The notes under the pieces are model-generated. The model was not told the origin of the DNA, ran no database searches, and saw nothing but the letters and a program-made list of their open reading frames with translations. Source: an uncultured Bacteroidales bacterium (GTDB lineage Bacteria; Bacteroidota; Bacteroidia; Bacteroidales; Paludibacteraceae). From it: a stretch of DNA of 64,000 nt. The stretch lies in assembly GCA_937910305.1 (NCBI GenBank), contig CALEPS010000188.1, forward strand, positions 1,095-65,094, read 5' to 3'. The position numbers and the translations under genes are program-made. Every line of letters starts with the position of its first letter. Position 1 is the stretch's first letter. Shown here one piece after another: positions 16,178-57,726 of the stretch.

Positions 16178-16252
16178 GGGCGTTTAGCTCAGCTGGTTTA
16201 GAGCATCTGCCTTACAAGCAGAGGGTCTGCGGTTCGAATCCGTAAACGCCCA
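16178..16252 (+). tRNA. tRNA-Val (anticodon UAC)
   Basis: A 75-nt cloverleaf folded by hand. Acceptor stem GGGCGTT/AACGCCC, D arm GCTC-AGCTGGTTTA-GAGC, anticodon arm TCTGC-CTTACAA-GCAGA (anticodon TAC), T arm with TTCGAAT loop, discriminator A. Confidence 0.9.
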
Positions 16253-16269
16253 CAAGATTAAAGCACACG

Positions 16270-16310
16270 AAATCAATAAGTTACGAAAATGTGACTTATT
16301 GATTTTTTCT
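16270..16310 (+). terminator. rho-independent terminator downstream of tRNA-Val
   Basis: An 11-bp stem AATCAATAAGT / ACTTATTGATT (16271-16281 / 16294-16304) with a 12-nt loop, followed by TTTTTCTTTTG. Confidence 0.6.
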
Positions 16311-16324
16311 TTTGTCACAGTTAG

Positions 16325-16435
16325 TTGCACTCTTATTGCACTCCTCCGTAAACGGCTTATTTACAAACAACTACCTTTTTACTACTCTTTTACTACATTT
16401 TTGTAGATTTCAAAAAGAGTGCAAAAAAAGTGCAA
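16325..16435. promoter_or_regulatory. four TTGCACT(C/T) sites in a 2+2 inverted arrangement upstream of the integrase gene
   Basis: TTGCACTC at 16325-16332 and 16336-16343 (11-bp spacing). The inverted copies are GAGTGCAA at 16417-16424 and AAGTGCAA at 16428-16435 (11-bp spacing). They are candidate integrase arm-type sites or an operator. Confidence 0.4.
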
Positions 16436-16449
16436 CTAATTTTAACACT

Positions 16450-27368: not shown

Positions 27369-27404
27369 GAGAGCGATTGGGAGTTAATGATATAACGAAG
27401 CCCC

Positions 27405-27421
27405 GCCGTGCCCCGCACGGC
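27405..27421 (-). promoter_or_regulatory. GC-rich hairpin just downstream of VR (candidate DGR target-recognition hairpin)
   Basis: GCCGTGC-CCC-GCACGGC, a 7-bp perfect stem extendable with one mismatch. It lies 12-28 nt beyond the stop codon of the VR gene. Confidence 0.45.
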
Positions 27422-27432
27422 AGAGCCTTTGG

Positions 27433-38040: not shown

Positions 38041-41000
38041 TTATTCCTCCTCCGGGTTATGCAACGCATCACGCTCGTTCAGCAGACGGTTGAAACGCTC
38101 CACGGCTTTCTCCTCTGCTTTCTCGGTGCTCTCCTCACCACGCATCCACCATGTCAGCGGTGCGGTATGCACTTTCTGATAACGGATATAATCCGCCAAC
38201 GCAGCATCATACTTTCTCTCGTCAGCTACCACGCGGTCAATCAGTTGTTGCTCGTACTGGCTCTGAGGAATACTCAGTAAGGCCTGCGAGATACGCAATG
38301 CCTGTTCCGCCGCGCTCAGTTCCTCCTCGCTGTCAATGGTAGTTACTATGCGTTGGATTACGTCTCCTGCCGTCTGCGGGTCAAAGCCGGTGCCGGACTG
38401 CATAGCCACCGACAGGGCTTGGTTGGCAAACTCGGCATATTTGTCGTTATCAAGATACTTACCTACACGTTTCACATCCTGCGTAAAAGGCAACTCGGGA
38501 GCGAACATGTCTGCTACGCTGCCATTACCATCCAACGCGCTCTCTATTACTCCGCCGCCCATCAGGCCCGTGAACGGACTGAACCATGCGCCGCCGGAAG
38601 TAGTATCGTCTATCAACTGCTTCTTCTTGTCGTCATCGTCGCCTAAGAGCAGATACGGCACCTGACCAACCAGCCGCCATAATAGATTAAGGAGTGCGCC
38701 ATAGACCACGAATCCGGCTATGTCGGAGCGGATGGACTTATTATAGTCCTTCTCCGCTGCCTTGCGTGCCTGCTCGTCCTTCAGTCCGTCGTTCTTGTAC
38801 TGACCCATACGGAAGGCTATCTGCTCTTCCTTGCTTCCTTTGCCGAACTTACGCAGCAGGTTACGGGTGTGGAATATGAAGTTTCTGGTGTACTGAATAG
38901 GAGAAGTGCGGAATACTGTAAGCGCTGCAGTATAGACGTTTCTATCCATCTGCACAGGAGACATGAACGCTCCCTCACTCGACTGCTGGCTGGTGTTAAA
39001 CGCCTGCTCGGAATCCTGACGGGCACGCTGCTCCGCCTGCTCTTGTGGATAACCTTTCTTCAGATACTCCGCCAAGCGGCTGTCATAAACCGCCCTCGCA
39101 CCGGTGGCGCAAGTCAGCGTATCGAAATACACATTGGCGGCCATTCCATATTTCTGACTCCACTCCAGCACGCGCTTGTTCCATTGCCAGTCGGTCGTGC
39201 GCTGCATCAACCGCATATCGCCCATATCCCTCTTGCTGACACGTTTCTCGAAGTTAGGCAGGTTCTCTCTTGCCCACTTCATCGTGCCGTGAGGGGTCAT
39301 CCAGTTACGCAGATACGAACCTACAAACACACCATCGGTCATATACGTGAAGAACGCAGGGAAGGAAGCAATCTGCTTCAATGCCGTCCATATACGGAAG
39401 TTAATCTTCGCGCTCGTCACTCCCTTAGCTATATTCAGAGTAATCTCAGATGGCTGATCCGTCTTAGGCTTATACGTACCTATCGCTACGCGGAAAGCGT
39501 CCTTCATATAGTTATAGAGTTGGTCGCCACTACCATAGATAGTGCCGTTCATCCCCTTGATGCGGTTGCGGAAATTGATGTCCGAGAACAGGATATTAGC
39601 GTCCCGGTTCCATTGGGCAAACGCGTTCCAACGCTCCATCTGTGCGATATGACGGATAACCTCTTGGAAGAAATCAGCATTCCTTACATCCAACGGCAGG
39701 CTGTTCTTGGTACGACGTTTGATAGCGCCGGTGCTTGTGCCTGCCAACAGACGCGCTGCATCCGTATCGGGTTCGCTCAAATCCTCGTTCTGCTGACGCG
39801 CAGCGGCATTGATGCGCAGCGGGAAGTAGTTCTCTATCGCGTCCATCGGAGCACCAAACAACGCCTCATGCGTCGGATTATAGCGGTTACGCAGCTGCGA
39901 GAAGAACTCTCGCTGTACCCAGTCCACTACATCCAGTATCTCCTGACCGAACTGCTCACGCACCTTATCCGTCAATGCTTTCACATCGTCCTCGGTGATA
40001 TTCATGCCGGCTAACTTCATACGGCCGTCATTCATCTTGTTTACCGCATAGATATAGAGCGCATTGCCAGCACTCAGCGGGATATCCTCCATTACCGGCA
40101 TATCCTTACCGTCCACACCGTTGAGCATGGTCACGGTGAACATATTATGGCTGGCATCGTTAATCTTACGCGCTGCCTCTTCCCATGTCTTGTACTTGCC
40201 GTGTGTCAGTTCGGATATCTTCTCGTCCAGCGTCTTCGATGCCGCTACAATGCCGGTGTACTCTTGGTCGGCTGCGTCCATCCAACCGCGCATGAAGTGG
40301 TTATACAGATAACCCTCGCCGTCCGGGGCGTGCAGACCCGTCAGCCGCAGCAACGACTGCAGGTCGCGTATCGGGGAAGCAATAGCATCCCACATCTGAC
40401 GCGCTATAGCACCTCTGGTGCGGTTGCGGTTCGGATTGGTTGCCAGCCCCTCCAAGTCACGCTGTGCATAACTGCGTATCTTGTCGCGGTTAGCGCCCTG
40501 ACGGCGGATGAAGTCCTTGGCGCGAACTTCCTGAGTCGATACATACTCTTGCAGGTCACGGGTGGACTGCATGTAAGCATCGGCTTGGTCAAGATCGTTA
40601 TCACGCATGGCTTGTTTGATACTTTCTACAAGTTGCTTGCGTGCAGCAGGCTTAAGAGCCATATTGCCTTGCGCTTTCTTTAACTCCAAATCCAACTGCT
40701 TGCGCTCTTCCTGGATGTGCTGAATGCGCTCCAAATATTGAGCGGCTATCTCATAACCTATCCACTGACCTTTATACTGCAACTTCTGGCTCTCGTCCGT
40801 AGCATTATCCTCCATCTGCATCAGTTGGTCAATCAAACCATCTACCTCCTTATTCGGGTCGGTATGGTCGCCACGAAGCGTTAAGAGTGTTATGCCATTC
40901 TCCGGGTCGAGTACTTCATTGAGAGCTTTGAGGGCGTGCTGTCCTTCCAACGCCACCTTACCCTGCATTACTACGCCGCTGATGTTTATCTTGTCAATCG

Positions 41001-44000
41001 GTGTCTGACGCAGTTTGTCCCACTGACGCTGTGCGGCTTTGGCTTGGGCATCCACCATGTGGTCCATGATCGTATTCACCTCGGTGCTAATATCCTTCTT
41101 GCCTATCGCATGTACTATCTGCGTAGCGATACGGCGTGTCGTGTCCGGCATGTACTGTGCCCAAACGCCGTTCTCTTGGAGCAGCGTGTTGTAGAGGTTG
41201 AGAAGCGCATCGACCACCTTACGGTCATAGTCGGACTGCATCCGCATCGCCGCACGAATACCTTTGAGGTCGGCGGTCACTTTCTTGAGTGCGGACTGCA
41301 TGATGTTGTAGTTATTGTTCGCCTGCTGTACCAGCGCCTTGGTCACCGTCTCGCTCCGGCTCAATGTCGAAGGATTATTCACCGAGAAGCGGATGTCGTT
41401 ATTATCCTTACTGAACTCACCGCTATTGTTCGTCGCACTCTTGATTTGGTTCGGGGAGAATACCACGTACTCATTATATCCGTTACCCTTGCCTACTATC
41501 ACACCATCATTTCCGTTCTCTCGTAAAGCGTTGGTGAACTCTTGGCTACCAATCATTGTGCTGATTAAATAGTTGAGACTACCAGGGATTAGGAATGATT
41601 TGTCTGCAATAGCATCGTCTCTTACTTTGCGGCGTGCGGAGTCAGGACGATAGAAGGACGATATGCGTTCAATCTCTGCATCGTGCTTTCCTTCTTCCAT
41701 CTCGGCATTAACAGCATTGACAATATCATTATATTCGCCTACTGTTATATTCTTTCCGTTCTCGTTAAGGACAATCTTCCGCAAAGCCGGAGTATTGAAG
41801 TGCTCAACAATAAACGCTGATATGTCGTCCGGCATGTAGTCTTCCATCACAAACGGTTTACGCATGTTCAGATATACTTGCATGTGGCTCTTTCCGTAGA
41901 TGTCGGTATTGCCACGGTCTCCGAAATAGAACCCTGCACCAAATATGCCTCTATCTCCAGAGTTCTCTCCTAATCTATTTATATCAAACGTAGTAAACTC
42001 GTTAGGCGTGGAGTGTTCTACCACCAACGGCTTGCCATCTGCATCTACAACCTTGCTTGCGTGCTCGGGGTCGTTCTGCCAATCGCCGAACCATGCCTTG
42101 AACTTATCGGTAGTCGTTTGGTCGTCCTCGTTAGCGATACCATTTTTATCGTTCTCACCACCCGTCACGCTGAACCGGATATGGTCGCCGAGTTCCGTTC
42201 CATTGAGCATATCCCACAGTATGCGGTCGGCAACTTGCTTGGCGGAATCGAAATGCTTGATGCCGAACAGGTTCACACCTACCCAATGCCAGAAGTCCGC
42301 AAGGGCTTTCTTGGCGCGGTTGATGAGTTGGCGCACCTTGGCACCACGCAGCACAGAACCGGACTGCTCCGCCTCGTACTGCTCCTCTTTCGCCCACTCT
42401 TCCATACGTGCTGCACCGCGTTGTCCACTGTAGCGTGCCAGCGCCTCGGAACAGATAGCGTCGTCGGTAGTCAGTCCCTGGTAGTTCGGGTCGTTCACCA
42501 CCTCGTCCCAGAACGGCATGCCTTTGAAGATGTCCACGATAGACTGCCAGCCCTCGCGGTTGTTGCGCATCATCGCCTTTGCCCAGATATGGCTGTACTC
42601 ATGTATCGGTGAATTAGGGTTCAGTCCGTCCTTGGTCAGATAGATTCTGTCCCCTATCGCCCAACCATACAGCGTTCCATCGGGAGTGAGCATGGCTTCA
42701 CGGGTTCTGCCGGACGGAATGATATTACCGTTAGCGTCACGATAGATACGTCTGCCGTGGTATTGATCCTCAACAACCTTATCGGATGTATAGATAGCAT
42801 TATTGGTCATGTCCGGCACAAGTTTACCCTTATACTCGGAAATATCCGTTCCAATTGGTAATTGCGACAGCTCTGCACGTGTTTTGTCGGCTACCTCATA
42901 ATTACCTGCGGCAAGTTCCGCCTTACTGATAGAGCGAACCGGCACATACGAATTACCTTGCCACTCGCCCTCTGCCAATCCGAGGCGTTCCAATATCTGT
43001 CCGTTCTCTGCTGCGAAGCCGGGCAAATCAACACCCCAACGGGCATTGTTGCTCATGTGGTTGCTAAACCGAACCTTAACGGATGCGCCGTTGTTCTTAT
43101 TGGTATAGGTCACATAGACGCTTTCGGTGGTGCTTGCCTTGCTTACTCTTGCTTCTATCTGCGGATAGTCCGGGAACTGCCGCACTTCATACGGCATGTG
43201 CCATGTTCCATCACCTATTTGGAAACCATCACGGTCACGGCGTGTTTCTTTCTCCGAACCGTCTTCGGGCATTTGTTCATCGGTAGCGAGGAATACATCA
43301 AGGTCGGTATTGTCGTTCAGTACCTCAACGAGTGCGGCGGTAGCGAGTTGCTGCGCCTCGGTCTGGTTGGCAAACTGCGGATAGTCGAGGTTGGTGATCT
43401 GCGCCTCCGGCGTGGTCTCTTCCTCGTCGTCCTGCTCGTTGAGTGTCACGGCACGGCCGGAAGACATATTCGCGTACTTGGCTTCTTTCTCCGCCACACG
43501 GGCTATATACTGACTGCGGGTCTCGTTAGGCTTGGGAGCTATGGTATTATTCGGGAATCTGTTAGGGAAGATTTCACTTAAAGGTTGCTCCCACTTGCCT
43601 ACAAATCCTCTAATAATAGTATTTCCGTTAATGCCTATTTCTCCTGCTAAATCAGATAGTGTTTCGAAACCTTGTTCGAAATTCTTTTGTCCTATAGATG
43701 GAGCAAAATGAATTATACCATTTTTATATGCGCCTCTTTTTGAATATCCAATCCAACCTCTTGCAAAATCATCAAACGGCTCTTCTACACCCGATTTGGC
43801 CAGTTCTTCCGCATGTGACTCGTATTCAATGCTTGCTCTTTCTTTGCCTAAGACCAATGTGCCTGTTTTTGGATTATACATAAACCTTCTGTTATATATT
43901 GTGGAAAGGTCTATGTTTTCTTTGTTCAAGTTTATCGTTTGAACACCATCAATCGCATTAACAGTCGGCTTACGACCACTAATAGAGAACATCGGTTGCC

Positions 44001-47000
44001 CCTCCAGCACGCTTTCTCGCATCTCCGGCGTGATGTCGATAGCGTGCATGGTCTGATAACCGTCCTCCAACTGCGGCATCGTCACCTCGCCAACCTGCAC
44101 ACCCCATTTCTTGCCGTACTTCTGCATGAACCGTGGCAGTATGTCATCATAGAAGCCTTTCATACCGTCATAACCAACACGCAGACCATCGCCTTGGAAG
44201 GTCTCATCCACAGGCATCTCCTTTAGGCGTTTTGCTAAATCCTTGCCAAAGATGTCTGACATAGACTTGCCGTTATACTCACGATCATACTCGTCAGCAT
44301 ACATGCCGTTCTCGTCAAACTCCAGCGTCATCATTAGCCCGCTTGTCGGATAAACCTCGTAGGTGTTTTCGTCAGTCTTGACGATATGGTCAATCTCCTT
44401 GCCGATGTCGTAACGCTTGGCTTGTTGCTCGCCGGTAGTCCATGCTACTTTGTCGTAACCGTTCTCCGCAGCAAAGCGCAAAATACGCTTCATCGCCAAC
44501 TCATGCCAGTTTTTCTCAAACGGTGCAGCAGGAATAGCGCTTACGGGTATATTCTTCTTGAACTCTTCCCATCTGTCGTACAAATTCTCGTACTTTTCTT
44601 GTAACTCCGTATGCTTAGATTTCTCTTCGGGGGTTAAAACATCAAGCATTTCACCTCTCGTCCGTACTTGATTTTCGTACTTCTTCCATAACTGATCTCT
44701 ATAGTCATGGTACTCCAGTTGTGCCTTTGACGTTTCCTTTTCTAATTGACGATACTTGATAGCTGTCTCACTATCCACATACCCCCTCTCTCTACCCTCT
44801 TGATGCCGTTTGGACTGAATCTCGTCGATAACCAGCACATCCGCCAACTCCTCGCCGTTCTCGCCATACTTAATCTTATGAGCGTCTCCGAAACGAACCC
44901 AAGCAATAGCCTTTCCTGGTCCTGCATCGCCGAAGTGAATCTCATCATTCTCGTTCCATTCCTCAATATCAGGAACTATAAGAGCTATTTCACGCTTATT
45001 CTCCAAGCCCCAAGTGGTATAACGCAAGCGGGTCTCGTTGATGTTTCTCGGGCGACCTTCCGAATCAGCTTCCCATTGAGCATAGTCGCTGTCATTGTCG
45101 CGCATCAACTCATCGCCAACCGCATAATAGCCCATTGAGAAATCATCGCCGTATTCCTCAATCATTCTGTCCCATGCTACCTCGTTCGGATCTTCCTCGC
45201 CTGCCTCAACTGCCTCGTCATAGTACCGCTTGAACTCGTCCTTGCGTTCGAGGAATAAGGCATCTTCCTCATACTCCCCATATTCCTGTTCCTCAATCTG
45301 GATCTTGTGCTCACGGATATAATCAAGAATATCCTGCTTGGAGATAGTGAACTTCTTGCTTGCTTCGCCAAGGCGTACTACAAACTGACTGCGGGTCTCG
45401 TTGGGTTGCAACTCCACGGTCGGACGCTGCTGTGCCAACCAATCGCTCAGACCGATCCATTTGTCCTCACCGGCTTTCAGTCCGCCCGCTTTCTCTATCA
45501 TCGCACGCCATTGTTCCGGCGTAGCCTTCTCCTGCTTGATACCCTCCACCGCACGCTCTGCGTTGCTATAGAAGATGTCATTGTTCTGATTGCTGATAGA
45601 GAAACGGATGTCATCATTCTCCTCGCTGAACGAACCGTCATTGTCGGTAGCCGACTTGATTTGGTTGGGAGAGAAAGCAACGTACTCACCATTTAGATCA
45701 CCGTCAAAATATACTCCGTCATATCCATCGTCGATAAGTTGCTGCGTAAAACGTGCGCTTTCCTCTCTATCTTCCAACTCCGATAGTCGTTCCATATCTT
45801 CATTTGTAGCAAAATATGGCTCACGGATATTAAGGAATGTATTTAGAACACGACCTCCTTGTGCATAGCCTGCTGCGTAGTCATCATTCTTTGTGAAGAA
45901 ATAAAACCCTCTTCCAAGCCATCCGGCATCGTGTTGCTGTTGTCTATTCTCGTCAAAAATAGTAAACGAGTATGGAGTTCCATGCTTTGCCACCATCGGC
46001 TCGCCGTTCTCATCCAAGACCTTGCTGGCGTTCTCCGGGTCATTTTCCCAATCGCCGAACCAACGCTTGAACGAACGCAGACGTACTTGCAGCCATTGAC
46101 GCTCATTGAGGTTGGAACGCTTGCCGTTGGGGGCTTTCATAAACGTACCATCAGCCAATGCTGCGTCCTTTATCTGCTGCATCTCCTCACGTGCCGCCTT
46201 GGTCAGCGTGCGGTCAGTATCAAGCCCACCGCTTACGGAGAAGCGTATGCCCTCGTCATCGGTGGCTTGTAGTGTAGCTGCACGACGCGCACCCTCTTCT
46301 TTCGGGTCGTACTCGAACAGCGTCAGACCGGCTTTCTCCAGTCCGTCACGCAACTCCGTCGGCAGATCGTTCGGCACAACGGCATTACGGAACTCATCCA
46401 AATACACCGGACGACGGAACTTCGTCTCGAAATAACGGCTCGGTAAGTTGGCAATACGATCTTTCATTTCTGCGATGCGTCCTGCCCACTCATTGTCTGC
46501 CTGTATCTGATAACGATACTCGCGGTTGAGGTACGCTATCGGGTCGGCTTTCATCATCGCCTCCTGAATACGCATCAACGCATTATCCACGGCGATAAAC
46601 GGATTATCGTCCAGACCGTAAGCGTGTCCGTCCTTTTGTGTATAGTCACGGAAATCAATACCGAGGCTCGTCCAATCGTGTCCTACCTCCTCGTATGCCG
46701 TCTTGATCTTCTCTTCTTCGGGTTCAAGGATGTCCTTATGCTTGCGGATTTGGTTCAGCGTACGGAACTTAGGCATCAGCATAGATTTGGTCTCACTTAC
46801 TCCTGCACCTTCACGCCAGTTGGTGTCGCCCTCTTTATTCATCAGGCGGCTTGCATTCTCAATCGTGTTAGGAAGATAGCGGCGGTCGCCATCTCTCGTC
46901 CATCCTGCAAAGATAACCTCGTTATAGCCGAGTTTGTCTATTTCTTTCTGCAGCCACGCCTCGAATGCCGGACGCATACCCTCGGTGTCGATGATAGTCT

Positions 47001-50000
47001 GCGCTTTCTCAATCGTTCTGCCGTAGTTCTCTTTGCCGGCATCACGACCGTCCTGCATGATACGATAGAGTGCGGAATCATAGGCCGCGAATGACCAATG
47101 CTCTCCCCATCTGTCTTCCATGTAGTTAGCCGCACCGTCCTTACCCTCGGAGCGCATACGAGCCACCATCTCCTTGCGTTTGTCAATCTTCTCTTGGTCG
47201 CCGTACTGCTCCAGCCACAAGTTGAACTCTGCCAACTGCTCACCCTCTAACTTCTCGTAGGCATCATACGACGAACTGTCATAGAAGCCCGGATATTCCA
47301 TACCGAGACGTTTGTAGATGTCCTCTATAGATATATTAGGATAACGGCGCGGCGTTAACTCAATCGGCAGTTCACGTCCTTGCTGTGCCAGATAGACATA
47401 CTCCAGACCACTATAGTTGCGGTTCTTATCCATATAGTCACGGACGTTGTTCTGAATAGCAAAAGCCAAGTCCTCCGGAAGACCCTTTGTGAGTTCGTCT
47501 AATCTCTTTGCCGTCTCTTTACCCGCACGATACTCTACGTTCGGGTACATCGGAGTATAAGCGTCACCGGCATAGGTTCCGGCATTACGCCCTGACTCGC
47601 TATCCACCAGCGACGAAGGCATCACTAACGATACCTCACCATAGCCGTGGTGGTTCTGACGCGCCAAATCAATAACCGCAGCAGACGGATTAGCCAAGCC
47701 GCCCATCTTCAATGCCTTGCGCAGCTTCTCTGCGCTGATGTTATGCAGACCGACCAGCGTGTTCTTACCTACCGGAATAGTCTGCGTGCCACTAACCGAC
47801 AGACGCAGATCATCGGGACTCTTGTAGTAATGGATAGCGCCGGCATCGCTCTTGTCGGCTTTGGCTGCTTTGAGTGCGGCGCGGTTGGCATCCAGATCGG
47901 TGCTCACACTGACACCCATATCCTCCAAGCGATCCACCAACGCGCCACCTATCTCAGTGTCGGCGGCTTCAAATTTAGTAGAACTTACTTCTCCGGCTGC
48001 GGGAACTCCATCCCCTCTGCCTTCAGTTCGTCGTAGGCTTTGTTGATCAGTGTCAAACCCTTCTCGTCCCAATCCTCCTTCGGATTGCGTTCCTGAATCT
48101 GCGCTGCTCTCTCTGCTACTACTTTCGGCACTGTGATTGTCAGGTGCATTTCGCCTTGCCATAGCGAAAGCTTCGATACCTCGTTGTTCATTATTAATGG
48201 ATTTTATTATGTCAATTAACTCGTCTTTAACACCAAATGCACGCAAGGCTGATTCCAATTCGGCATCATCTTTAGCCTTGTAAGCCTCTTCCATCGCAAA
48301 GGATATGAACTCATCGGCTACAATAGAATGTTTCTGCTTGTTATAGAATGGGGAGTTGCTAAATTTCTCTAATAAAGACTTCAACTCACTCTCCGGAGCC
48401 ACATCCTCGACCTCTTTAACGCGCTTAATATCCTTTCGTGTTAAGTCATGTTGACGCTCGTGAACATACTTTGTTCTTGCACGCTCTGCATCCGGAAGAT
48501 TATCTATATCAAGGCACACATATCCGTTAAGATAGAAGCCTTCTATATGTCCTCCGTTCACTACGAGGCTTTGTGCCTCTGCGATAGCATCTGGTGTCGC
48601 GCCTATATTCCTTAATGTCTCTACAAGCGTAGAGTTATCAAACAAGATAGGCTTGTGCTCCTCGTCGGCAATGCCGTTCAGATAATCCGTTAACTGTTCG
48701 CGTTGGGTTGGTCGAACTTCTCCCAGTCCTCGTTCTTGTCCGACTCCAGAGCTTCCTTGATTCTCGCCTGCAATTCCGGCGTTATCTCCAGCTCCTCCGG
48801 CTTCTTCTCCAGATACTCCCTCAGAGCCGACTTCGGATAACCCGGCTCCTTCAGTACTGCCTCGATTCTCGCCTCCAGTTCGTCCTCCCAATCCGCCGCG
48901 TCCAGTAGTTCCAGCCCCCGTTTGCTCCAATACTCCGGGTTCCTTCCCCTGATCTCGCCCATTTTGCGGGCTATGTCCCTGCGAATCTGTACGGACATCC
49001 GCAGGTCGTCTTGCGTTACCGAGACGCTCACTTTGTCCCAGTCGTTCATCGTTTTCTCGTTGTTCATTATTGATAGATTTTATAATGTTAATCAACTCGT
49101 CATTAGCACCTGCTGCCCTCAATATGCTCTCTAATTCCTCATCACTTTCTACAGCATAAGCCTCTTCCATACTGTAAGAAATAAACTCATCGGCCAATAC
49201 ATCATGACTTTCATTACTATAAGCACCTCCAGATTGTGATAATACTTCTACTAACACATCCAACTCTTCTCTGCTCGCAGCACGCATCACGCGCTCTATT
49301 TGCTCTTTAGTCGTGAGTAGATGCTGACGCTCATGTATGTATTTCGAACGCGCTTTTTCGGTAGTATCAAGTCCATCAGTATTAAGGTATAATTTATTCT
49401 TGATAGTAAAGCCATCAAAGGTCTTTCCGTTCGCGAGTTGATTTCGTACGTACTCTATCTTTCGAGGACTTGTACCAAGTTGGATTAACAAATCAATAAA
49501 GTTATCGTTCCCGTACAGTTCAAACGGATGTGCCTCGTCGGCTATCGTATTCAAATAATCGGTCAACTCCTTGCGGTGTTTCTCCCGACGGGCTTCATCT
49601 ACGGACTTGTAGTCAATGCCGAATATCTGCTTGATGGCTTCTTTATGAGGAATAGCCGGGGTGTCACCAAATAAACTGCCTGTCGTTCCCTGTACCGCAT
49701 CATAGTACGCATTCAGCGCCTTGGCAATCTCTGTCTGCTTGCCGTATTTGAACAGCGTAGCTAATTCGAGCGCAAAGTTACTAAATTTTTCTGAAGGTAC
49801 AAAATTTTCGGCATCAAAATCGCTCGGAAATTGCATTTGTAGTGCCCAAGAGCGCATTGCTGCCCTTATTTCCTGTTCGTTTCGACCGTTTTTAACCTCT
49901 GCCGACTGATGTAACGCACGATATAACGCACCTATCGCTTCCTGAATGTCAGGTACCAATCGGCTTTCTTCCGGCGACTGCAGGTCGCGCACTATCGTTT

Positions 50001-53000
50001 GCAGTATCGCTTTCTGGGCCGTGACGGGAATATCGTCGAACATAATAGGCAGGTTGTCACTCTCTGCGTTTTGGAACAGTACCTGTTTGAGCACTCCCTG
50101 CAATGCCGCTTTCGCTTCGGCGGTCAGATTACCACGGCTGTCAAAAGCAGACTGCATCTGCGCATCGCTGATGATACCTAACTTCTGAAGAAACTCTAAC
50201 GCCGGTCTGCCGTTGCGTAAGGTCAAGTCCGCCAAAGTAGCTTCATCATCCTCGCTCCGCAATAGAATCTCCGAGAAACGCTGAATCCTGTCGCCTAACT
50301 GATTAGCCGTCACCTGCGGGTCAATCAGCTGCACACCTCCTGTCTCCAAGTCGGTCGCTTTCTTCTGCCATAACTGAATAGCCTGCTCGTCTGTCACGTT
50401 ATCCAACATGCGGACATCAATCACATCGTTATTGCGGATAGTCTCTATATCGGTTTCAGTATATCCCAAAGCCTCAGCATTGTCAATCAGATACTGCTTG
50501 TATTTGGCTACGCTCTCCGGGTGCGACTGGTACATCTTGATCAGCGCATCGAGACGGTTGTTACCCTGCACGGCTTCGCCGCGTCCATTCAGCACCGGAG
50601 CACCTACATACGCCGTGGCACCCTCTACAATCTCGTCGGGGTGTATATTCTGCGCCATCATGTCGGATGTCACTTTGCTTACTTGGTCGCGACGGTCTTT
50701 AGGCTGTGCCTCGCTGATGAAGAATGCCGGATTACGCTGACCGTTGATATGGCTTGGCTGTGCCATGCTTACAGGTATCAGCACATGGTGCGCCTCCGCT
50801 GCTCCGTTCTGCCCTTTGGCAAACTGTACCGTCACGGCCTTACCTGTTGCCAGCGGTTGCAATGGCTCTTGGCGGTGGATCACCCGACCGTTCACCACAT
50901 GGAAACCTCTGTTGCGGGCATCACGGTCGTTATCCTCACTGAAATCAGGTACACCTTTCTTCAACTCCCTGTCAATACGTTCCTGCTCCAACCGTGCGGC
51001 TTCCGCTGCTGCTGCCTGCTCTCTGGCTATGCGGGCGGCTTCCTCTGCCGCTCTGCGCTCTGCCTCCGCTTGGGCTCGCTGCTCACGCTCGGCAATAGTC
51101 AGATAACTCTTGGCTTTTTCTCTCGCCTCCGTCAGTTTGTCCAAACGGTCTTGCAACGCCTTCTTTTCTCGGTCAATGAGTTCTTGCTGCGCATTGAAAT
51201 CGGCTATGCCGTTATAGCGCGTCACTTTCTTGCGCTCGGCGGCTTTCAGCTGGCTTTGTGTGTTGGCTATTTCTGCTTCAAGGAATTTATCCACTCTCTC
51301 TCTGCTCCCCATGAACTCAACCGCTGCTCCGGCGTAGTCTGCCGCAGTCATTTTGTCAAGGACCGGTTCTACCGGCGCAGCGGGCTGCGCAGCTTGCGAT
51401 TGTTGGGGCGCTTGCTGGTGGCCGTCCTGCTGTTGGGTTTCTGTAGGTGCTGCCGGTTGTTGCTTTCCTTCAATAAGCGCATACCCCTGCTCCGCCATCT
51501 GCTCCGGGGTGACTATATTGGTCATGCCCTGCGCATCTTGATACGAATAGGTGCCGTCGCCGTTATCGGTAGCAGTTATCTCCTCCGTATCGTTCACGAA
51601 AATCGCCGTTCCCTCCGGCAACTGCTCTTGCACTCGCTCCACGGCGGCTTGCTCGGCGGCTGCCTGATCCATGCGGTTGGCTACCTCCGTCCGGATAAAC
51701 GTGTCCGGCGTGCCGGGCGTGGCAGTCAGGTTCAGATCCTTGGCGTTCTCCTGTGTCACCGTGCCGTCCGACCACTTGACCGTTACCACATCGTTATTGG
51801 TGATACGTCCTTTCTCGTTTATCGCGGGACTGACCGTACCAACCACGAATCCTTGCCGCTCGGCATCGCCAGCCATCTGAACGGGATAGACATTACCGTC
51901 ATCGTGCGTCCGCTCTCCGTAGTACTGCGTCACCTCTGCCGTCATCCTCTGCTCCGGTGTCATCTCCTCCGCCTGCTGGGGACCCGAACCGCCACCTTCT
52001 TCTATTGCCCGCCTATCGGTTCTTTCGTTATTTCGCGGCATATATTCGTTCAAACGATTCAGATAGCTCTCAAAGATAGTTTTATCCTTGGCACTCAATC
52101 GGCTGTACTCTCGACTCAACAGCTTCGACAAATCATCTATAGAAACACCTTGCTCGCGCGCTACTTGCTCGCGCACACCTTTCAATATATCACTTCCCTT
52201 TATGTCCTCTGCCAGATATTTCTCCATCTGACTGCGGATAGCACGCTCTATAGGTGTCAGACTACCCTCGTCCGCACTCAATACACGATACGCATCTTCA
52301 CGCGATAACTGCGGGTAGTTCTCTATCGTCTTGGCTATTGCTCCGTCGGTAACCTCCTGCATCTTCTCTGCAAAACCTCGGGTGCGGATGATGCCCTCTA
52401 CCCACTCTAACATATTGTTACGCGTAGCACCGTACTGACGAACACGATAAGCCTCCGCCGCCTTTTGCGTATCGAACTTACGAGTCTCATAAACCATGCC
52501 GCCGTTATCATAGGTCTTCACTACATAACCGTCAGCACCGGATTCTATATCACCCACGTAGATAGGACTCACATGAGCATCAACCTTGCCATACAGCAAC
52601 GATGCTAACTTATACTTGGCTTGCGTGTCTATACGCTCGTCTGCGGAGATGTCGTTCAATACCCTGTAATACTCTTCCAACGAACCAAACTCCTTGCCTC
52701 CGTTCAGGCTCTTCAGTATCGTATAAGCATCCTTTCCTTCTATTCCAGCGGCATTAAACTGCTCAATCTCTTCTCTCGTCAAGGTATGCGCCATCGGATC
52801 CTGACGCATCGCCTCCCATGCTTTGCGCAGTCCTCCGGCCTTACTTGCGGTCTTCAATCCGCCTTGGATGTCAAAGAACAACTGCATAGCCGCAGCATTA
52901 GCATACTCGTTACCCCAATCGACATCGTTTAACGAACCGCCTTGCAGAATATGACTCGCCACTCCGCTACCTACCATAATATTGGTTCCTGAGGCGAAGT

Positions 53001-54435
53001 GCGTTGCACGGCCGGCTACTAATCCCAAATCACGACCGAAAGCGTCTCCTACAGCTTTCTGTACCCTCTCTCCGAGTGCTCCGCCACCTGCAAAGGCCAT
53101 ACCGGTTAGTGCGCCACGTATCGGAGCCGTTGCAAGATTAGACCAATTAACCTCGCCTGTTTGATACAATTCTCCAATTAACGTGTGACCCGTATCTATA
53201 CCAGCCATCATTACACCACCACTCGTCAACCGCTGAGCGGTACGCAGTAAACCGCGCTGCATCGCAGCACGTTCCGCCGCTCCGGCAGCATCACTCAAAC
53301 CGACGCTTGCTAAACGGCGACCGGCAGCATTAACAATACCACGACCTGCCGCTTCTCCCACTCCCGGCATTATCCACATCAGCGGATCGGCTACTACATT
53401 GGCTACTTCCGCACCTATAGCAACTCCTTTTGTTGCCCAACCGGGATTCGCTTGCTCGTATTGCTGCGTTCCCTGCATCGCATACTGACGGCTCTGTGGA
53501 GACTGTGTATAGAGAGACGCTAACTGCGCAATCAAATTGCCTTGGATGAACTTCCGCGCAAAATAATCCAATTTGTCTTGCGGGATATTCTGACCTACAA
53601 AACGCTCTGCTATCTTGTCTTCTACAAAACGCTTGTATAACTGATACTCATCGATAGTCGCACCCATCTCTTGGGCAAGTTGAGCATCACCCTTTACATC
53701 TTTGCTCTGATATTTATTGTCTAACTCTCTCTCGAATGCATCAACGATAGCCTCTGGGCTATTCTGCTTGTTGGCTTCGCGGCTTGCTATAAGCGAATAA
53801 CCTATATTACCGAAACCGCCGCCCATTACAGAAGGTAGGTTCACTTGCTGTGGTTTGTTACGCTGAACGCTCTCCGCTGCCGCTTTGGCACGCTCGTTGG
53901 CTTTATTCCATACCTCATTCAGCACCGGCGCATCTTGCTTCCATTGTGCTTCAAACTGCTCTTTGTACGGAGCCAGCATACTCTCCCATTCTGCTTGAGC
54001 GCGTGCCGCATCTTGCGCTGCCGCCTCTTGTTGTTGCTGACGGCTCCTGCCTTGTATGTCTGTCGTGGCACTGATATGATATGGATTATGTGCTCCTATG
54101 CTCTGCCAGAAACTCGGTCTCTGCTCCACCAACGGATGATTCGGGTCACTGGTTACTCCTTGGATTGCGTTCTGACGCGCTAACTCTTCCTGCTCGCTCA
54201 ATAACGAACCGCCGGACACGCCTGCTTGCTGTGCCGGTTGTCCGTCAGAGGTCATAGCCAAAGCGAACTGCTCCGGCGTGCCTATATTGAGACCCAATTG
54301 TCCAGCTTGCTCATATACCCACTGACGATTCTTCTCGTCCTGCATCGCAGCGGCAAAATCATCTTCACTACCGAGATTGACGCGTTTGCCCGTCATCTCC
54401 TTATATAACCAACTTTGATTATCAGTTAGTGCCAT
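38041..54435 (-). CDS. giant (5,464 aa) multidomain polyvalent-type virion protein
   Basis: A single uninterrupted 16,395-nt ORF. It contains three HExxH motifs, two homologous H-Y-E ART-like domains, a possible ParB-like segment (VQGNNRLDALIKMY), glycine-rich hydrophobic N-terminal segments and a long helical C-terminal third. Confidence 0.85.
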   Translation of the reverse strand: MALTDNQSWLYKEMTGKRVNLGSEDDFAAAMQDEKNRQWVYEQAGQLGLNIGTPEQFALAMTSDGQPAQQAGVSGGSLLSEQEELARQNAIQGVTSDPNHPLVEQRPSFWQSIGAHNPYHISATTDIQGRSRQQQQEAAAQDAARAQAEWESMLAPYKEQFEAQWKQDAPVLNEVWNKANERAKAAAESVQRNKPQQVNLPSVMGGGFGNIGYSLIASREANKQNSPEAIVDAFERELDNKYQSKDVKGDAQLAQEMGATIDEYQLYKRFVEDKIAERFVGQNIPQDKLDYFARKFIQGNLIAQLASLYTQSPQSRQYAMQGTQQYEQANPGWATKGVAIGAEVANVVADPLMWIMPGVGEAAGRGIVNAAGRRLASVGLSDAAGAAERAAMQRGLLRTAQRLTSGGVMMAGIDTGHTLIGELYQTGEVNWSNLATAPIRGALTGMAFAGGGALGERVQKAVGDAFGRDLGLVAGRATHFASGTNIMVGSGVASHILQGGSLNDVDWGNEYANAAAMQLFFDIQGGLKTASKAGGLRKAWEAMRQDPMAHTLTREEIEQFNAAGIEGKDAYTILKSLNGGKEFGSLEEYYRVLNDISADERIDTQAKYKLASLLYGKVDAHVSPIYVGDIESGADGYVVKTYDNGGMVYETRKFDTQKAAEAYRVRQYGATRNNMLEWVEGIIRTRGFAEKMQEVTDGAIAKTIENYPQLSREDAYRVLSADEGSLTPIERAIRSQMEKYLAEDIKGSDILKGVREQVAREQGVSIDDLSKLLSREYSRLSAKDKTIFESYLNRLNEYMPRNNERTDRRAIEEGGGSGPQQAEEMTPEQRMTAEVTQYYGERTHDDGNVYPVQMAGDAERQGFVVGTVSPAINEKGRITNNDVVTVKWSDGTVTQENAKDLNLTATPGTPDTFIRTEVANRMDQAAAEQAAVERVQEQLPEGTAIFVNDTEEITATDNGDGTYSYQDAQGMTNIVTPEQMAEQGYALIEGKQQPAAPTETQQQDGHQQAPQQSQAAQPAAPVEPVLDKMTAADYAGAAVEFMGSRERVDKFLEAEIANTQSQLKAAERKKVTRYNGIADFNAQQELIDREKKALQDRLDKLTEAREKAKSYLTIAEREQRAQAEAERRAAEEAARIAREQAAAAEAARLEQERIDRELKKGVPDFSEDNDRDARNRGFHVVNGRVIHRQEPLQPLATGKAVTVQFAKGQNGAAEAHHVLIPVSMAQPSHINGQRNPAFFISEAQPKDRRDQVSKVTSDMMAQNIHPDEIVEGATAYVGAPVLNGRGEAVQGNNRLDALIKMYQSHPESVAKYKQYLIDNAEALGYTETDIETIRNNDVIDVRMLDNVTDEQAIQLWQKKATDLETGGVQLIDPQVTANQLGDRIQRFSEILLRSEDDEATLADLTLRNGRPALEFLQKLGIISDAQMQSAFDSRGNLTAEAKAALQGVLKQVLFQNAESDNLPIMFDDIPVTAQKAILQTIVRDLQSPEESRLVPDIQEAIGALYRALHQSAEVKNGRNEQEIRAAMRSWALQMQFPSDFDAENFVPSEKFSNFALELATLFKYGKQTEIAKALNAYYDAVQGTTGSLFGDTPAIPHKEAIKQIFGIDYKSVDEARREKHRKELTDYLNTIADEAHPFELYGNDNFIDLLIQLGTSPRKIEYVRNQLANGKTFDGFTIKNKLYLNTDGLDTTEKARSKYIHERQHLLTTKEQIERVMRAASREELDVLVEVLSQSGGAYSNESHDVLADEFISYSMEEAYAVESDEELESILRAAGANDELINIIKSINNEQRENDERLGQSERLGNARRPADVRTDSQGHSPQNGRDQGKEPGVLEQTGAGTTGRGGLGGRTGGENRGSTEGAGLSEVGSEGVSGEEAGGAGDNAGIAGENQGSSGVGQERGLGEVRPTQREQLTDYLNGIADEEHKPILFDNSTLVETLRNIGATPDAIAEAQSLVVNGGHIEGFYLNGYVCLDIDNLPDAERARTKYVHERQHDLTRKDIKRVKEVEDVAPESELKSLLEKFSNSPFYNKQKHSIVADEFISFAMEEAYKAKDDAELESALRAFGVKDELIDIIKSINNEQRGIEAFAMARRNAPDNHSAESSSRESSADSGTQSEGGLGREGFDTDQQSLRRTEGRGDGVPAAGEVSSTKFEAADTEIGGALVDRLEDMGVSVSTDLDANRAALKAAKADKSDAGAIHYYKSPDDLRLSVSGTQTIPVGKNTLVGLHNISAEKLRKALKMGGLANPSAAVIDLARQNHHGYGEVSLVMPSSLVDSESGRNAGTYAGDAYTPMYPNVEYRAGKETAKRLDELTKGLPEDLAFAIQNNVRDYMDKNRNYSGLEYVYLAQQGRELPIELTPRRYPNISIEDIYKRLGMEYPGFYDSSSYDAYEKLEGEQLAEFNLWLEQYGDQEKIDKRKEMVARMRSEGKDGAANYMEDRWGEHWSFAAYDSALYRIMQDGRDAGKENYGRTIEKAQTIIDTEGMRPAFEAWLQKEIDKLGYNEVIFAGWTRDGDRRYLPNTIENASRLMNKEGDTNWREGAGVSETKSMLMPKFRTLNQIRKHKDILEPEEEKIKTAYEEVGHDWTSLGIDFRDYTQKDGHAYGLDDNPFIAVDNALMRIQEAMMKADPIAYLNREYRYQIQADNEWAGRIAEMKDRIANLPSRYFETKFRRPVYLDEFRNAVVPNDLPTELRDGLEKAGLTLFEYDPKEEGARRAATLQATDDEGIRFSVSGGLDTDRTLTKAAREEMQQIKDAALADGTFMKAPNGKRSNLNERQWLQVRLRSFKRWFGDWENDPENASKVLDENGEPMVAKHGTPYSFTIFDENRQQQHDAGWLGRGFYFFTKNDDYAAGYAQGGRVLNTFLNIREPYFATNEDMERLSELEDREESARFTQQLIDDGYDGVYFDGDLNGEYVAFSPNQIKSATDNDGSFSEENDDIRFSISNQNNDIFYSNAERAVEGIKQEKATPEQWRAMIEKAGGLKAGEDKWIGLSDWLAQQRPTVELQPNETRSQFVVRLGEASKKFTISKQDILDYIREHKIQIEEQEYGEYEEDALFLERKDEFKRYYDEAVEAGEEDPNEVAWDRMIEEYGDDFSMGYYAVGDELMRDNDSDYAQWEADSEGRPRNINETRLRYTTWGLENKREIALIVPDIEEWNENDEIHFGDAGPGKAIAWVRFGDAHKIKYGENGEELADVLVIDEIQSKRHQEGRERGYVDSETAIKYRQLEKETSKAQLEYHDYRDQLWKKYENQVRTRGEMLDVLTPEEKSKHTELQEKYENLYDRWEEFKKNIPVSAIPAAPFEKNWHELAMKRILRFAAENGYDKVAWTTGEQQAKRYDIGKEIDHIVKTDENTYEVYPTSGLMMTLEFDENGMYADEYDREYNGKSMSDIFGKDLAKRLKEMPVDETFQGDGLRVGYDGMKGFYDDILPRFMQKYGKKWGVQVGEVTMPQLEDGYQTMHAIDITPEMRESVLEGQPMFSISGRKPTVNAIDGVQTINLNKENIDLSTIYNRRFMYNPKTGTLVLGKERASIEYESHAEELAKSGVEEPFDDFARGWIGYSKRGAYKNGIIHFAPSIGQKNFEQGFETLSDLAGEIGINGNTIIRGFVGKWEQPLSEIFPNRFPNNTIAPKPNETRSQYIARVAEKEAKYANMSSGRAVTLNEQDDEEETTPEAQITNLDYPQFANQTEAQQLATAALVEVLNDNTDLDVFLATDEQMPEDGSEKETRRDRDGFQIGDGTWHMPYEVRQFPDYPQIEARVSKASTTESVYVTYTNKNNGASVKVRFSNHMSNNARWGVDLPGFAAENGQILERLGLAEGEWQGNSYVPVRSISKAELAAGNYEVADKTRAELSQLPIGTDISEYKGKLVPDMTNNAIYTSDKVVEDQYHGRRIYRDANGNIIPSGRTREAMLTPDGTLYGWAIGDRIYLTKDGLNPNSPIHEYSHIWAKAMMRNNREGWQSIVDIFKGMPFWDEVVNDPNYQGLTTDDAICSEALARYSGQRGAARMEEWAKEEQYEAEQSGSVLRGAKVRQLINRAKKALADFWHWVGVNLFGIKHFDSAKQVADRILWDMLNGTELGDHIRFSVTGGENDKNGIANEDDQTTTDKFKAWFGDWQNDPEHASKVVDADGKPLVVEHSTPNEFTTFDINRLGENSGDRGIFGAGFYFGDRGNTDIYGKSHMQVYLNMRKPFVMEDYMPDDISAFIVEHFNTPALRKIVLNENGKNITVGEYNDIVNAVNAEMEEGKHDAEIERISSFYRPDSARRKVRDDAIADKSFLIPGSLNYLISTMIGSQEFTNALRENGNDGVIVGKGNGYNEYVVFSPNQIKSATNNSGEFSKDNNDIRFSVNNPSTLSRSETVTKALVQQANNNYNIMQSALKKVTADLKGIRAAMRMQSDYDRKVVDALLNLYNTLLQENGVWAQYMPDTTRRIATQIVHAIGKKDISTEVNTIMDHMVDAQAKAAQRQWDKLRQTPIDKINISGVVMQGKVALEGQHALKALNEVLDPENGITLLTLRGDHTDPNKEVDGLIDQLMQMEDNATDESQKLQYKGQWIGYEIAAQYLERIQHIQEERKQLDLELKKAQGNMALKPAARKQLVESIKQAMRDNDLDQADAYMQSTRDLQEYVSTQEVRAKDFIRRQGANRDKIRSYAQRDLEGLATNPNRNRTRGAIARQMWDAIASPIRDLQSLLRLTGLHAPDGEGYLYNHFMRGWMDAADQEYTGIVAASKTLDEKISELTHGKYKTWEEAARKINDASHNMFTVTMLNGVDGKDMPVMEDIPLSAGNALYIYAVNKMNDGRMKLAGMNITEDDVKALTDKVREQFGQEILDVVDWVQREFFSQLRNRYNPTHEALFGAPMDAIENYFPLRINAAARQQNEDLSEPDTDAARLLAGTSTGAIKRRTKNSLPLDVRNADFFQEVIRHIAQMERWNAFAQWNRDANILFSDINFRNRIKGMNGTIYGSGDQLYNYMKDAFRVAIGTYKPKTDQPSEITLNIAKGVTSAKINFRIWTALKQIASFPAFFTYMTDGVFVGSYLRNWMTPHGTMKWARENLPNFEKRVSKRDMGDMRLMQRTTDWQWNKRVLEWSQKYGMAANVYFDTLTCATGARAVYDSRLAEYLKKGYPQEQAEQRARQDSEQAFNTSQQSSEGAFMSPVQMDRNVYTAALTVFRTSPIQYTRNFIFHTRNLLRKFGKGSKEEQIAFRMGQYKNDGLKDEQARKAAEKDYNKSIRSDIAGFVVYGALLNLLWRLVGQVPYLLLGDDDDKKKQLIDDTTSGGAWFSPFTGLMGGGVIESALDGNGSVADMFAPELPFTQDVKRVGKYLDNDKYAEFANQALSVAMQSGTGFDPQTAGDVIQRIVTTIDSEEELSAAEQALRISQALLSIPQSQYEQQLIDRVVADERKYDAALADYIRYQKVHTAPLTWWMRGEESTEKAEEKAVERFNRLLNERDALHNPEEE
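41381..42183 (-). other. ART-like domain 2 of the giant protein
   Basis: FKAWFGDWQNDPEHASKVVDADGKPLVVEHSTPNEFTTFD...GAGFYFGDRG...GYNEYVVFSPNQIKSATNNSGEFSKDNNDIRFSV. It is homologous to domain 1. Confidence 0.5.
42589..42603 (-). other. third HExxH motif (HEYSH) of the giant protein
   Basis: NSPIHEYSHIWAKAMM, read from the reverse complement of ATGGCTGTACTCATG. Confidence 0.6.
45598..46251 (-). other. ART-like domain 1 of the giant protein
   Basis: FKRWFGDWENDPENASKVLDENGEPMVAKHGTPYSFTIFD...GRGFYFFTKND...NGEYVAFSPNQIKSATDNDGSFSEENDDIRFSI. Confidence 0.5.
47985..48191 (-). CDS. nested +1-frame ORF 2 (68 aa, MNNE..., RHH-like pattern) inside the giant gene
   Basis: (54435-48191) mod 3 = 1. 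It is a paralog of the 48690..49067 ORF. A TAA lies 5 codons upstream in its frame. Sequence: MNNEVSKLSLWQGEMHLTITVPKVVAERAAQIQERNPKEDWDEKGLTLINKAYDELKAEG. Confidence 0.4.
   Translation of the reverse strand: MNNEVSKLSLWQGEMHLTITVPKVVAERAAQIQERNPKEDWDEKGLTLINKAYDELKAEGMEFPQPEK
48190..48693 (-). other. HExxH module, tandem copy 2 (main frame of the giant gene)
   Basis: LTDYLNGIADEEH...KYVHERQHDLT...ADEFISFAMEEAY...DELIDIIKSINN. HERQH is at 48448-48462. Confidence 0.7.
48690..49067 (-). CDS. nested +1-frame ORF 1 (125 aa, MNNE..., RHH-like pattern) inside the giant gene
   Basis: (54435-49067) mod 3 = 1. A TAA lies 5 codons upstream in its frame. It exactly fills the linker between HExxH module 1 and module 2. 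Sequence: MNNEKTMNDWDKVSVSVTQDDLRMSVQIRRDIARKMGEIRGRNPEYWSKRGLELLDAADWE... Confidence 0.45.
   Translation of the reverse strand: MNNEKTMNDWDKVSVSVTQDDLRMSVQIRRDIARKMGEIRGRNPEYWSKRGLELLDAADWEDELEARIEAVLKEPGYPKSALREYLEKKPEELEITPELQARIKEALESDKNEDWEKFDQPNANS
49066..49566 (-). other. HExxH module, tandem copy 1 (main frame of the giant gene)
   Basis: LTDYLNTIADEAH...KYIHERQHLLT...ADEFISYSMEEAY...DELINIIKSINN. HERQH is at 49321-49335. The copy-to-copy period is 876 nt. Confidence 0.7.
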
Positions 54436-57702: not shown

Positions 57703-57726
57703 AGGGAAATATATGCTGAATGATTA

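Follow-up and report, generated by a model that had tools for sequence, protein, structure and literature searches.

A giant protein encoded by a Bacteroidales prophage is probably a phage-type polyvalent protein and belongs to a family with conserved ends and a mosaic center

We analyzed a stretch of 64,000 nucleotides (hereafter, the window) from an uncultured Bacteroidales bacterium of the Paludibacteraceae (contig CALEPS010000188.1 of assembly GCA_937910305.1, positions 1,095 to 65,094), in which a prophage carries a single open reading frame (ORF) for a protein of 5,464 amino acids (aa). This giant protein probably is a polyvalent protein of the phage type, that is, a late-expressed chain of several anti-host enzymes set between conserved end modules. 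Such proteins were defined by Iyer, Burroughs, Anand, de Souza & Aravind 2017 (PMC5512222), and the families matched by the giant protein, namely, ddrB-ParB, PBECR5, and ART-PolyVal, were themselves defined on polyvalent proteins, with DdrB-ParB reported in the phage type only (PMC5512222). Because ddrB-ParB, PBECR5, and two ART-PolyVal domains lie in one chain, the giant protein contains the at least two effector domains that mark a polyvalent protein. An earlier reading of the window by sequence inspection (the original prediction) invoked the same concept, which is now supported by four Pfam domains of the polyvalent repertoire, similarity to DdrB of phage P1, and location in a prophage with genes for a portal protein and the large terminase subunit (TerL).

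The ORF lies on the minus strand (38041..54435), starts with ATG 6 nt past the stop codon of an upstream ORF of 1,086 aa, and runs for 16,395 nt (5,464 codons and a stop codon) with no internal stop in the translation. In all its 500-codon blocks, the GC content of the three codon positions follows the order GC1 > GC3 > GC2. Comparison with the closest relative in the IMG/VR database gave dN 0.11 and dS 0.97 for the C-terminal module (dN/dS about 0.12) and pN/pS of about 0.5 for the N-terminal and middle parts, in which synonymous sites approach saturation. The ORF is real, coding over its full length, and under purifying selection. The single 5,464-aa frame of the original prediction is thus borne out by the ORF listing, the uninterrupted translation, and the uniform coding signal, as is its share of about a third of the visible prophage (34% of about 47.7 kb). 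Cysteine accounts for only 3 of the 5,464 residues. Megablast of the gene against GenBank phages, an NCBIfam scan of the protein, and PDB sequence searches with both halves of the protein and with a C-terminal profile yielded, respectively, no match, no match, and nothing useful.

A chimeric assembly, or fortuitous read-through of several adjacent genes, could in principle produce such an ORF, and the array is indeed split in some relatives, into ORFs of 1,264+/1,098/1,719 aa or 1,757+/940 aa. However, about 20 independent cluster representatives of 4.6-6.2 kaa (thousand aa) have the same ends, two ORFs reconstructed from IMG/VR measure 5,691 and 6,086 aa, and complete genomes of cultured Bacteroides phages contain ORFs of 5,391 and 5,553 aa; the uniform codon-position signal and the purifying selection also speak against an artefact. 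Given homologous ORFs of similar size in independent assemblies, an assembly or frameshift artefact is very unlikely, and we assign this explanation next to no probability. By the same token, the size that the original prediction had found remarkable is not exceptional for the lineage, in which dozens of relatives measure 4.6-6.2 kaa.

The modules and domains recognized in the giant protein are as follows, from the N-terminus to the C-terminus; the Pfam domain calls in this list are above the curated gathering cut-offs.

54241..54435, minus strand: N-terminal leader with two copies of a ~30-aa motif (aa 1-65; iterated hidden Markov model, HMM)
50986..54435, minus strand: conserved N-terminal module (aa ~1-1150; 23-72% identical to the N-termini of the 4.6-6.2 kaa proteins)
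50434..50760, minus strand: DdrB-like ParB/Srx domain (aa 1226-1334; Pfam PF18763, ddrB-ParB, E 4e-16, 59.6 bits against a cut-off of 27.6)
48841..49587, minus strand: HExxH module 1 (aa 1617-1865, HERQH at aa 1701; 45-47% identical to the single copy in relatives)
47983..48723, minus strand: HExxH module 2, candidate gluzincin (aa 1905-2151, HERQH at aa 1992; 94% identical to the single copy of P0013)
47371..47766, minus strand: PBECR5 predicted RNase (aa 2224-2355; Pfam PF18814, E 3e-25, 89.8 bits against a cut-off of 25)
45628..46014, minus strand: ART-PolyVal ADP-ribosyltransferase 1 (aa 2808-2936; Pfam PF18760, E 6e-23, full-length profile match)
43906..45627, minus strand: conserved module of unknown function (aa ~2937-3510; 41-66% identical to relatives L003, L006, P0013, P0017, P0033, and P0042)
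42181..42858, minus strand: HEYSH module, candidate gluzincin (aa 3860-4085, HEYSH at aa 3945; 19 unique homologues)
41413..42045, minus strand: ART-PolyVal ADP-ribosyltransferase 2, with an internal insert (aa 4131-4341; Pfam PF18760, E 6e-20)
38044..41412, minus strand: conserved, predicted all-helical C-terminal module (aa 4342-5464, ~1,120 aa; 30-84% identical to relatives)

The effector domains in the center carry the assignment. The similarity of the ParB-like domain extends to DdrB of phage P1 itself, which is matched by aa 1230-1419 (tblastn, E 2e-5), and the stretch VQGNNRLDALIKMY (aa 1289, window 50530-50571), which the original prediction had singled out as possibly ParB/Srx-like, indeed lies within the Pfam ddrB-ParB match. 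Both domains that it had taken for H-Y-E ADP-ribosyltransferases were recovered as ART-PolyVal with the motifs kept, as H (AKHGTP), Y (GFYFF), and E (GEYVAF) in the first and H (VEHSTP), Y (GFYFG), and E (NEYVVF) in the second, and Pfam added PBECR5, a domain that had been missed. Among the families that had been named as candidates, the Pfam search of the giant protein found a ParB-type domain (ddrB-ParB) and ART-PolyVal but neither MPTase-PolyVal nor any LPD family. Matches to PHROGs were limited to unannotated families over the PBECR5 and ART regions (phrog_22978 spans aa 2221-2739), and a word-indexed homology search with aa 1600-2800 returned one match only. The conserved module at aa ~2937-3510 has no Pfam match. 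Homologues of ART-PolyVal are present in large crAss-like phage proteins annotated as associated with RNA polymerase (RNAP) and in a DarB-like protein.

The three HExxH modules are candidate peptidases by their motifs. In module 2, H1992, E1993, H1996, D2041, and E2042 are invariant across 8 unique homologues, and in the HEYSH module, which directly precedes the C-terminal module in many relatives, H3945, E3946, H3949, and E3997 are kept in 89% of the 19 unique homologues; the spacing of HExxH and the downstream Glu fits a minimal gluzincin. A weak hhalign match between the HERQH and HEYSH modules (E 2e-4, prob 47%) takes in a strand, the helix with HExxH, and the helix with the Glu, and the AlphaFold2 (AF2) model of the HEYSH module shows three strands, the HEYSH helix, and a later helix with E3997 (predicted local distance difference test, pLDDT, 62.8). 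The tandem pair and the third HExxH region of the original prediction thus stand as motifs with a downstream Glu but not as members of a metallopeptidase family or fold, for which no match was obtained. The two HERQH modules are about 45-50% identical to one another. Module 1, which gives way to a Gly-rich linker (aa ~1800-1900), lies within a stretch (aa 826-1900) that is 63% identical to P0017 and so resembles the P0017 copy, whereas module 2 is closest to P0013. Because their nearest relatives differ, the sequence comparison points to inter-lineage recombination, that is, mosaic acquisition, as the likely origin of the pair, rather than to a recent local duplication.

The enzymatic center is framed by the conserved ends. 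The leader motif reads W-L/V-Y ... G-x-N-x-G-S/T-x-D/E-D/E-F-x-x-x-M; it has no Pfam match, but the iterated HMM detected it in 44 proteins, and 42 of the 59 domain matches (significant and weak) begin within the first 30 residues. Among these proteins are gp55 of phage BKO1-TP3 (E 9e-18) and gp68 of phage BF1-TP2 (E 1e-15), other parts of which were called unrelated. The leader may be a capsid-targeting signal. It is found at the extreme N-terminus of many phage proteins, from 84 to 5,600 aa, with copies at L057:5630-5830 and L004:9225-9425. Within the N-terminal module, composition and hydropathy mark aa 330-540 (window 52816-53448) as Gly-rich and partly hydrophobic, in agreement with the glycine-rich hydrophobic segments noted in the original prediction, and a charged coiled-coil-like stretch lies at aa ~1040-1170; the module has no Pfam, PHROG, or PDB sequence match.

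Homologues of the C-terminal module were found in 39 IMG/VR loci, 6 genome contigs, and many cluster representatives. Its AF2 model is all-alpha (pLDDT 58.6), and a transmembrane-like helix lies at aa 5234-5257 (window 38665-38736); a helical C-terminal part had been predicted at a length of roughly 1,500 aa, of which the helical character holds, while the conserved part comprises about 1,120 aa. The module has no match in Pfam or PHROGs and none in the PDB by sequence, profile, or Foldseek, which gave chance-level matches only. In BFVD, the model matched C-terminal fragments of very large phage proteins annotated ART-PolyVal or LPD. It also matched a protein of Tenacibaculum phage Gundel_1, a podovirus, that is annotated as 'structural protein', and one of Marinomonas phage CB5A annotated as 'Protein inside capsid D' (E 9e-5 at a template modelling score, TM, of 0.11 and with a query model of pLDDT 58.6). 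These matches range from E 1e-24 to 1e-4 but have TM-scores of 0.1-0.3; they are a model-based lead towards an internal or ejection-protein role, not a proof of it.

As judged by sequence, the giant protein is one of a family of 4.6-6.2 kaa proteins, of which literature searches yielded no description. Word-indexed searching with the C-terminal 1,123 aa retrieved only a few homologues, and a pattern scan of IMG/VR with this module retrieved the 39 viral loci. In most of these, the frame of the module is open across the entire 10-kb upstream flank; the complete ORFs of 5,691 and 6,086 aa were obtained by joining overlapping loci. A peptide-pattern scan of IMG/VR with the N-terminal 1,200 aa gave no match, and the family was found by exhaustive HMMER search with aa 1-1200, which produced 72 proteins; cluster representatives of 4,647-6,170 aa (including 5,603, 6,170, 5,509, and 5,160 aa) make up about 20 of these, and the closest relative, P0013 (5,603 aa), is 76% identical. 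Matches of the C-terminal module in genomes come from Bacteroidaceae, Prevotella, and Bacteroidales metagenome-assembled genomes, to which the longer contigs belong. Short contigs with this module (L044, L045, L047) were assigned by binning to 'Firmicutes bacterium CAG:95', 'Azospirillum sp. CAG:239', and 'Dialister sp. CAG:486'; these are probably mis-binned phage contigs.

BLAST maps of the family show conserved ends and a mosaic center, in which modules are present, absent, duplicated, or reordered. In 14 relatives, for which Pfam content was read from the locus translations, the center contains SNF2/ResIII helicase (8), ART-PolyVal (6), InPase (4), PBECR5 (4), LPD3 (4), and LPD23 (3), along with LPD13, C5 and N6 methylases, MuF_C, Zeta toxin, RadC, and PBECR1/2/3. 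By these domain assignments, the central domains are swapped like cassettes and represent the polyvalent repertoire. The array is not always one ORF: in L001 (CAVHKB010000022.1, 3-12374), it is laid out as consecutive ORFs of 1,264+/1,098/1,719 aa and in L003 (2-9748) as ORFs of 1,757+/940/555+ aa, so that the C-terminal module can stand alone as a 940-aa protein.

The giant protein resembles the known phage-type polyvalent proteins in combining DdrB-ParB, PBECR, ART-PolyVal, and HExxH modules in one polypeptide, in being encoded by a prophage beside packaging genes, and in the mosaic shuffling of domains among orthologues. It differs in size, as 5,464 aa is far above the '>2,000 aa' noted for such proteins (PMC5512222), in the lack of a match to MPTase-PolyVal or LPD, and in its end modules and leader, for which there is no Pfam or PHROG model. 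A further comparison is with the Dar system of phage P1: the ParB-like domain shows direct similarity to P1 DdrB, and the order of a ParB domain followed by an HExxH module is that of DdrB, with HELGH at aa 872. P1 DdrB is incorporated in processed form into the P1 head, and P1 Dar, T4 Alt, and N4 virion RNAP (vRNAP) are precedents for packaged, ejected proteins (PMC5512222). Unlike the giant protein, P1 uses several separate proteins. The dyad of DarB has no counterpart in the giant protein, where Pfam found no methylase or helicase family; a helicase of the SNF2 type (SNF2/ResIII/Helicase_C), as in the helicase half of DarB, is present in 8 of the 14 relatives and an N6 DNA methylase in 1 of the 14. 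No DarA or Hdf partners of the P1 Dar system were recognized. The crAss-like phages offer a further parallel through the ART-PolyVal homologues in their large proteins annotated as RNAP-associated. N4 vRNAP and the crAss-like virion RNAP with its associated proteins are very large, are carried in short-tailed virions, and are ejected into the host.

Giant proteins are also encoded by three cultured Bacteroides temperate phages, BS-TP4, BKO1-TP3, and BF1-TP2, the genomes of which come from a study that does not discuss these proteins (PMC12694917). BS-TP4 gp3 is a 'hypothetical' protein of 5,391 aa (L054, PQ571277.1, 24736-40911), and BKO1-TP3 gp55 is a 'DarB-like antirestriction' protein of 5,553 aa with a helicase (L057, PQ571269.1, 5630-22291); both genes adjoin the portal gene. 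BF1-TP2 gp68 (3,633 aa) shares PBECR5 and ART-PolyVal with the giant protein of the prophage. The lineages are related, with TerL about 36% identical, a P22-type portal, a diversity-generating retroelement (DGR), and genomes of 64-68 kb. The region upstream of and including the ParB domain of the giant protein (aa ~823-1609) is 34-36% identical to gp3 and gp55, and the leader is the same in gp55 and gp68, whereas the first ~800 aa of the giant protein differ from the cultured-phage giants, and the C-terminal part of the latter, with LPD38, is not detectably related to its C-terminal module (hhalign prob 0.3%). The BS-TP4 and BKO1-TP3 giants differ from each other in the center, but identity reaches 78% in the first ~2,500 aa and 62% in the last ~1,250 aa. 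The cultured-phage giants thus follow the same logic of conserved ends and a variable center. In the GenBank records of the three phages, the TerL homologue is labelled 'tail spike protein' (L054 19986-22082; L004 26207-28234); secondary annotation and the tblastn relatives identify it as a terminase.

The prophage surroundings of the giant gene include the following features.

16178..17655, plus strand: tRNA-Val (16178-16253) and tyrosine integrase at the left prophage junction
21349..23388, minus strand: P22-like portal protein (Pfam PF16510, E 2.5e-31; phrog_156, E 4e-47)
35680..37737, plus strand: TerL, 685 aa, convergent with the giant gene (tblastn to TerL of Stx-converting and Vibrio phages)
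37730-38038, minus strand: 102-aa ORF between TerL and the giant gene
54442..58899, minus strand: upstream syntenic genes for 390-aa and 1,086-aa proteins, putatively structural (conserved beside the giant gene in IMG/VR relatives)

The tRNA-Val and integrase, the portal and TerL genes, an endolysin-like gene downstream of the giant gene, and the synteny with TerL place the giant gene in the packaging neighborhood of a prophage. Since the prophage begins at the tRNA-Val and no attR was found within the 64,000-nt window, about 47.7 kb of it is visible. The order of the 390-aa, 1,086-aa, giant, and 102-aa genes and the convergent TerL is kept in relatives; TerL is conserved in 32 related loci, and the 1,086-aa protein matches BS-TP4 gp26, annotated as a putative structural protein. 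The original prediction had located the gene in a late operon between virion genes, which agrees with the synteny with TerL and putative structural genes, but the flanking genes are mostly unannotated. PDB sequence searches with the 1,086-aa neighbor and with a 468-aa ORF returned nothing useful, and an exact-sequence look-up of the prophage TerL in public assemblies returned no match. Membership in the Quimbyviridae was considered and rejected: the TerL of that family groups with myovirus subfamilies, and the TerL of the prophage matches Stx-converting and Vibrio phages.

The prophage also carries a complete DGR (25480-28584, minus strand), with a reverse transcriptase (25480-26931), a template repeat (26742-26882), and a variable repeat (27438-27578) at the C-terminal end of a 383-aa ORF (27433-28584); all 15 of the 15 mismatches between the repeats are at adenines of the template repeat, and a 132-aa ORF (26970-27368) between the reverse transcriptase and the 383-aa ORF is an Avd candidate. 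The host genes of the left flank encode IgGFc_binding, PKD, OmpA, and PAP2 domains. One host gene (12635-15421) is identical on a 17.7-kb contig (L056) of GCA_900089715.1, which ends about at the tRNA-Val, as would fit an assembly break at the prophage junction (window 16100-16330).

If the giant protein is a polyvalent protein, it would be expressed late and loaded into the capsid, with the leader and/or the end modules serving as the incorporation signal, and it would be ejected with the DNA via portal and tail, in the manner of the P1 Dar proteins, T4 Alt, and N4 vRNAP. The Gly-rich N-terminal stretch and the transmembrane-like C-terminal helix may aid passage through the envelope. The zincin-like modules would then cut the chain at Gly/Ser/Glu-rich low-complexity linkers (such as aa ~1800-1900 and ~2100-2200), and the freed enzymes could modify host proteins by ADP-ribosylation, cleave RNA or DNA of the host, and weaken its defenses within the first minutes of infection.

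Several observations weigh against this interpretation. Late expression, capsid packaging, ejection, and self-processing of the giant protein itself are proposed by analogy. The three HExxH modules and their homologues match neither MPTase-PolyVal nor any other Pfam peptidase, a Foldseek search of the PDB with the HEYSH model yielded chance-level matches only and no zincin, and in hhalign neither type of HExxH module matched the HELGH peptidase region of P1 DdrB. The end modules have no PDB match (by sequence for both, by fold for the C-terminal one), and the BFVD matches of the C-terminal model combine low TM-scores (0.1-0.3) with a low-pLDDT query model. Because the neighboring genes are mostly of unknown function, the 'late operon' rests on synteny and position, and since the array is spread over 2-3 ORFs in some relatives, it need not be a single polypeptide.

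A more far-reaching version of the proposal, which we put forward tentatively and regard as possible although doubtful, is that the end modules and the 60-aa leader form a carrier system for a freely exchangeable, self-cleaving effector cassette. The leader would target the capsid, and the end modules, with their Gly-rich stretch and transmembrane-like helix, would thread a chain of >600 kDa via the P22-type portal and tail across the Bacteroidales envelope.

Among the competing explanations, the most serious is that the giant is a structural ejection (internal core) protein, with end modules that provide a DNA conduit across the Bacteroidales envelope and an enzymatic center that is a secondary passenger; we consider it unlikely, if less so than the others. 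The T7 gp15/gp16 and P22 ejection proteins carry DNA across the envelope in this manner. It is the end modules that are conserved, with strong purifying selection on the C-terminal one; the protein has a Gly-rich hydrophobic stretch and a transmembrane-like helix; the BFVD match to 'Protein inside capsid D' (E 9e-5) is joined by weaker ones to tape-measure and minor-tail proteins; and the P22-like portal suggests a short-tailed virion in need of ejection proteins, of which no other obvious genes were recognized. The structural matches, however, have TM-scores of 0.1-0.3 with a low-confidence model, solved ejectosome proteins are matched neither by sequence nor by fold, a lytic transglycosylase domain is absent from the giant protein, and the cultured analogues have an unrelated C-terminal part with LPD38. 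An ejection role overlaps with the polyvalent one rather than excluding it. A tape measure, tail fiber, or other tail component is far less credible, to the point of being very improbable: the Gly-rich hydrophobic and coiled-coil stretches and weak BFVD matches to tape-measure and minor-tail proteins (E 4e-3 to 0.1) are outweighed by more than 3,000 aa of globular enzyme modules, by the P22-like portal, and by the scanned ORFs, which include no tail tube or sheath and a sole, marginal tail match (major tail protein, phrog_14018, E 8e-4). At about 0.15 nm per residue, by our own estimate, a tape measure of this length would also imply a tail of roughly 800 nm.

Alternatively, the protein might never be packaged and act in the cytoplasm, expressed either by the prophage or at a late stage of infection. 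Its role would then lie in superinfection exclusion, in taking over the host, or in fighting rival elements. Hosts may use polyvalent-type proteins defensively (Iyer et al., PMC5512222), non-structural genes, for example, for a DNA methyltransferase, lie upstream on the same strand, and Pfam found no packaging domain (MuF, portal fusion) in the giant protein. This scenario appears quite improbable to us: in many relatives, the giant gene is found with putative structural genes on one side and TerL on the other, and a soluble array of enzymes would not readily account for the conserved leader and end modules. More specific identities were also tried and rejected: for a virion RNAP, Pfam returned no RNAP family, and the PDB sequence search, run at E up to 1, gave no match; for a MuF-fused toxin, there was no Phage_Mu_F match in the giant protein at E up to 5, with MuF_C present in 2 of the 14 relatives; and for a tape measure, there was no match to tape measure protein families in Pfam or PHROGs and no long-tail gene set in the scanned ORFs.

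Under the interpretation that we favor, a phage-type polyvalent protein, a lineage of Bacteroidales temperate phages would devote roughly a quarter to a third of its genome to one such protein. Polyvalent proteins are thought to be the first weapons that a phage fires into the cell, and to our knowledge, P1 Dar, T4 Alt, and N4 vRNAP are among the few that have been studied. The design of two ends with swappable enzymes between them makes three questions testable, namely, which part serves packaging and ejection, how general the leader is as a capsid signal, and how a 600-kDa protein is delivered and processed; the cultured relatives BS-TP4 and BKO1-TP3 are available for such experiments. If the carrier version were true, these proteins would constitute a phage-borne protein-injection platform with plug-in cargo that is common in temperate phages of the human gut. 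The family would also be a catalogue of candidate anti-defense enzymes active in dominant gut bacteria.

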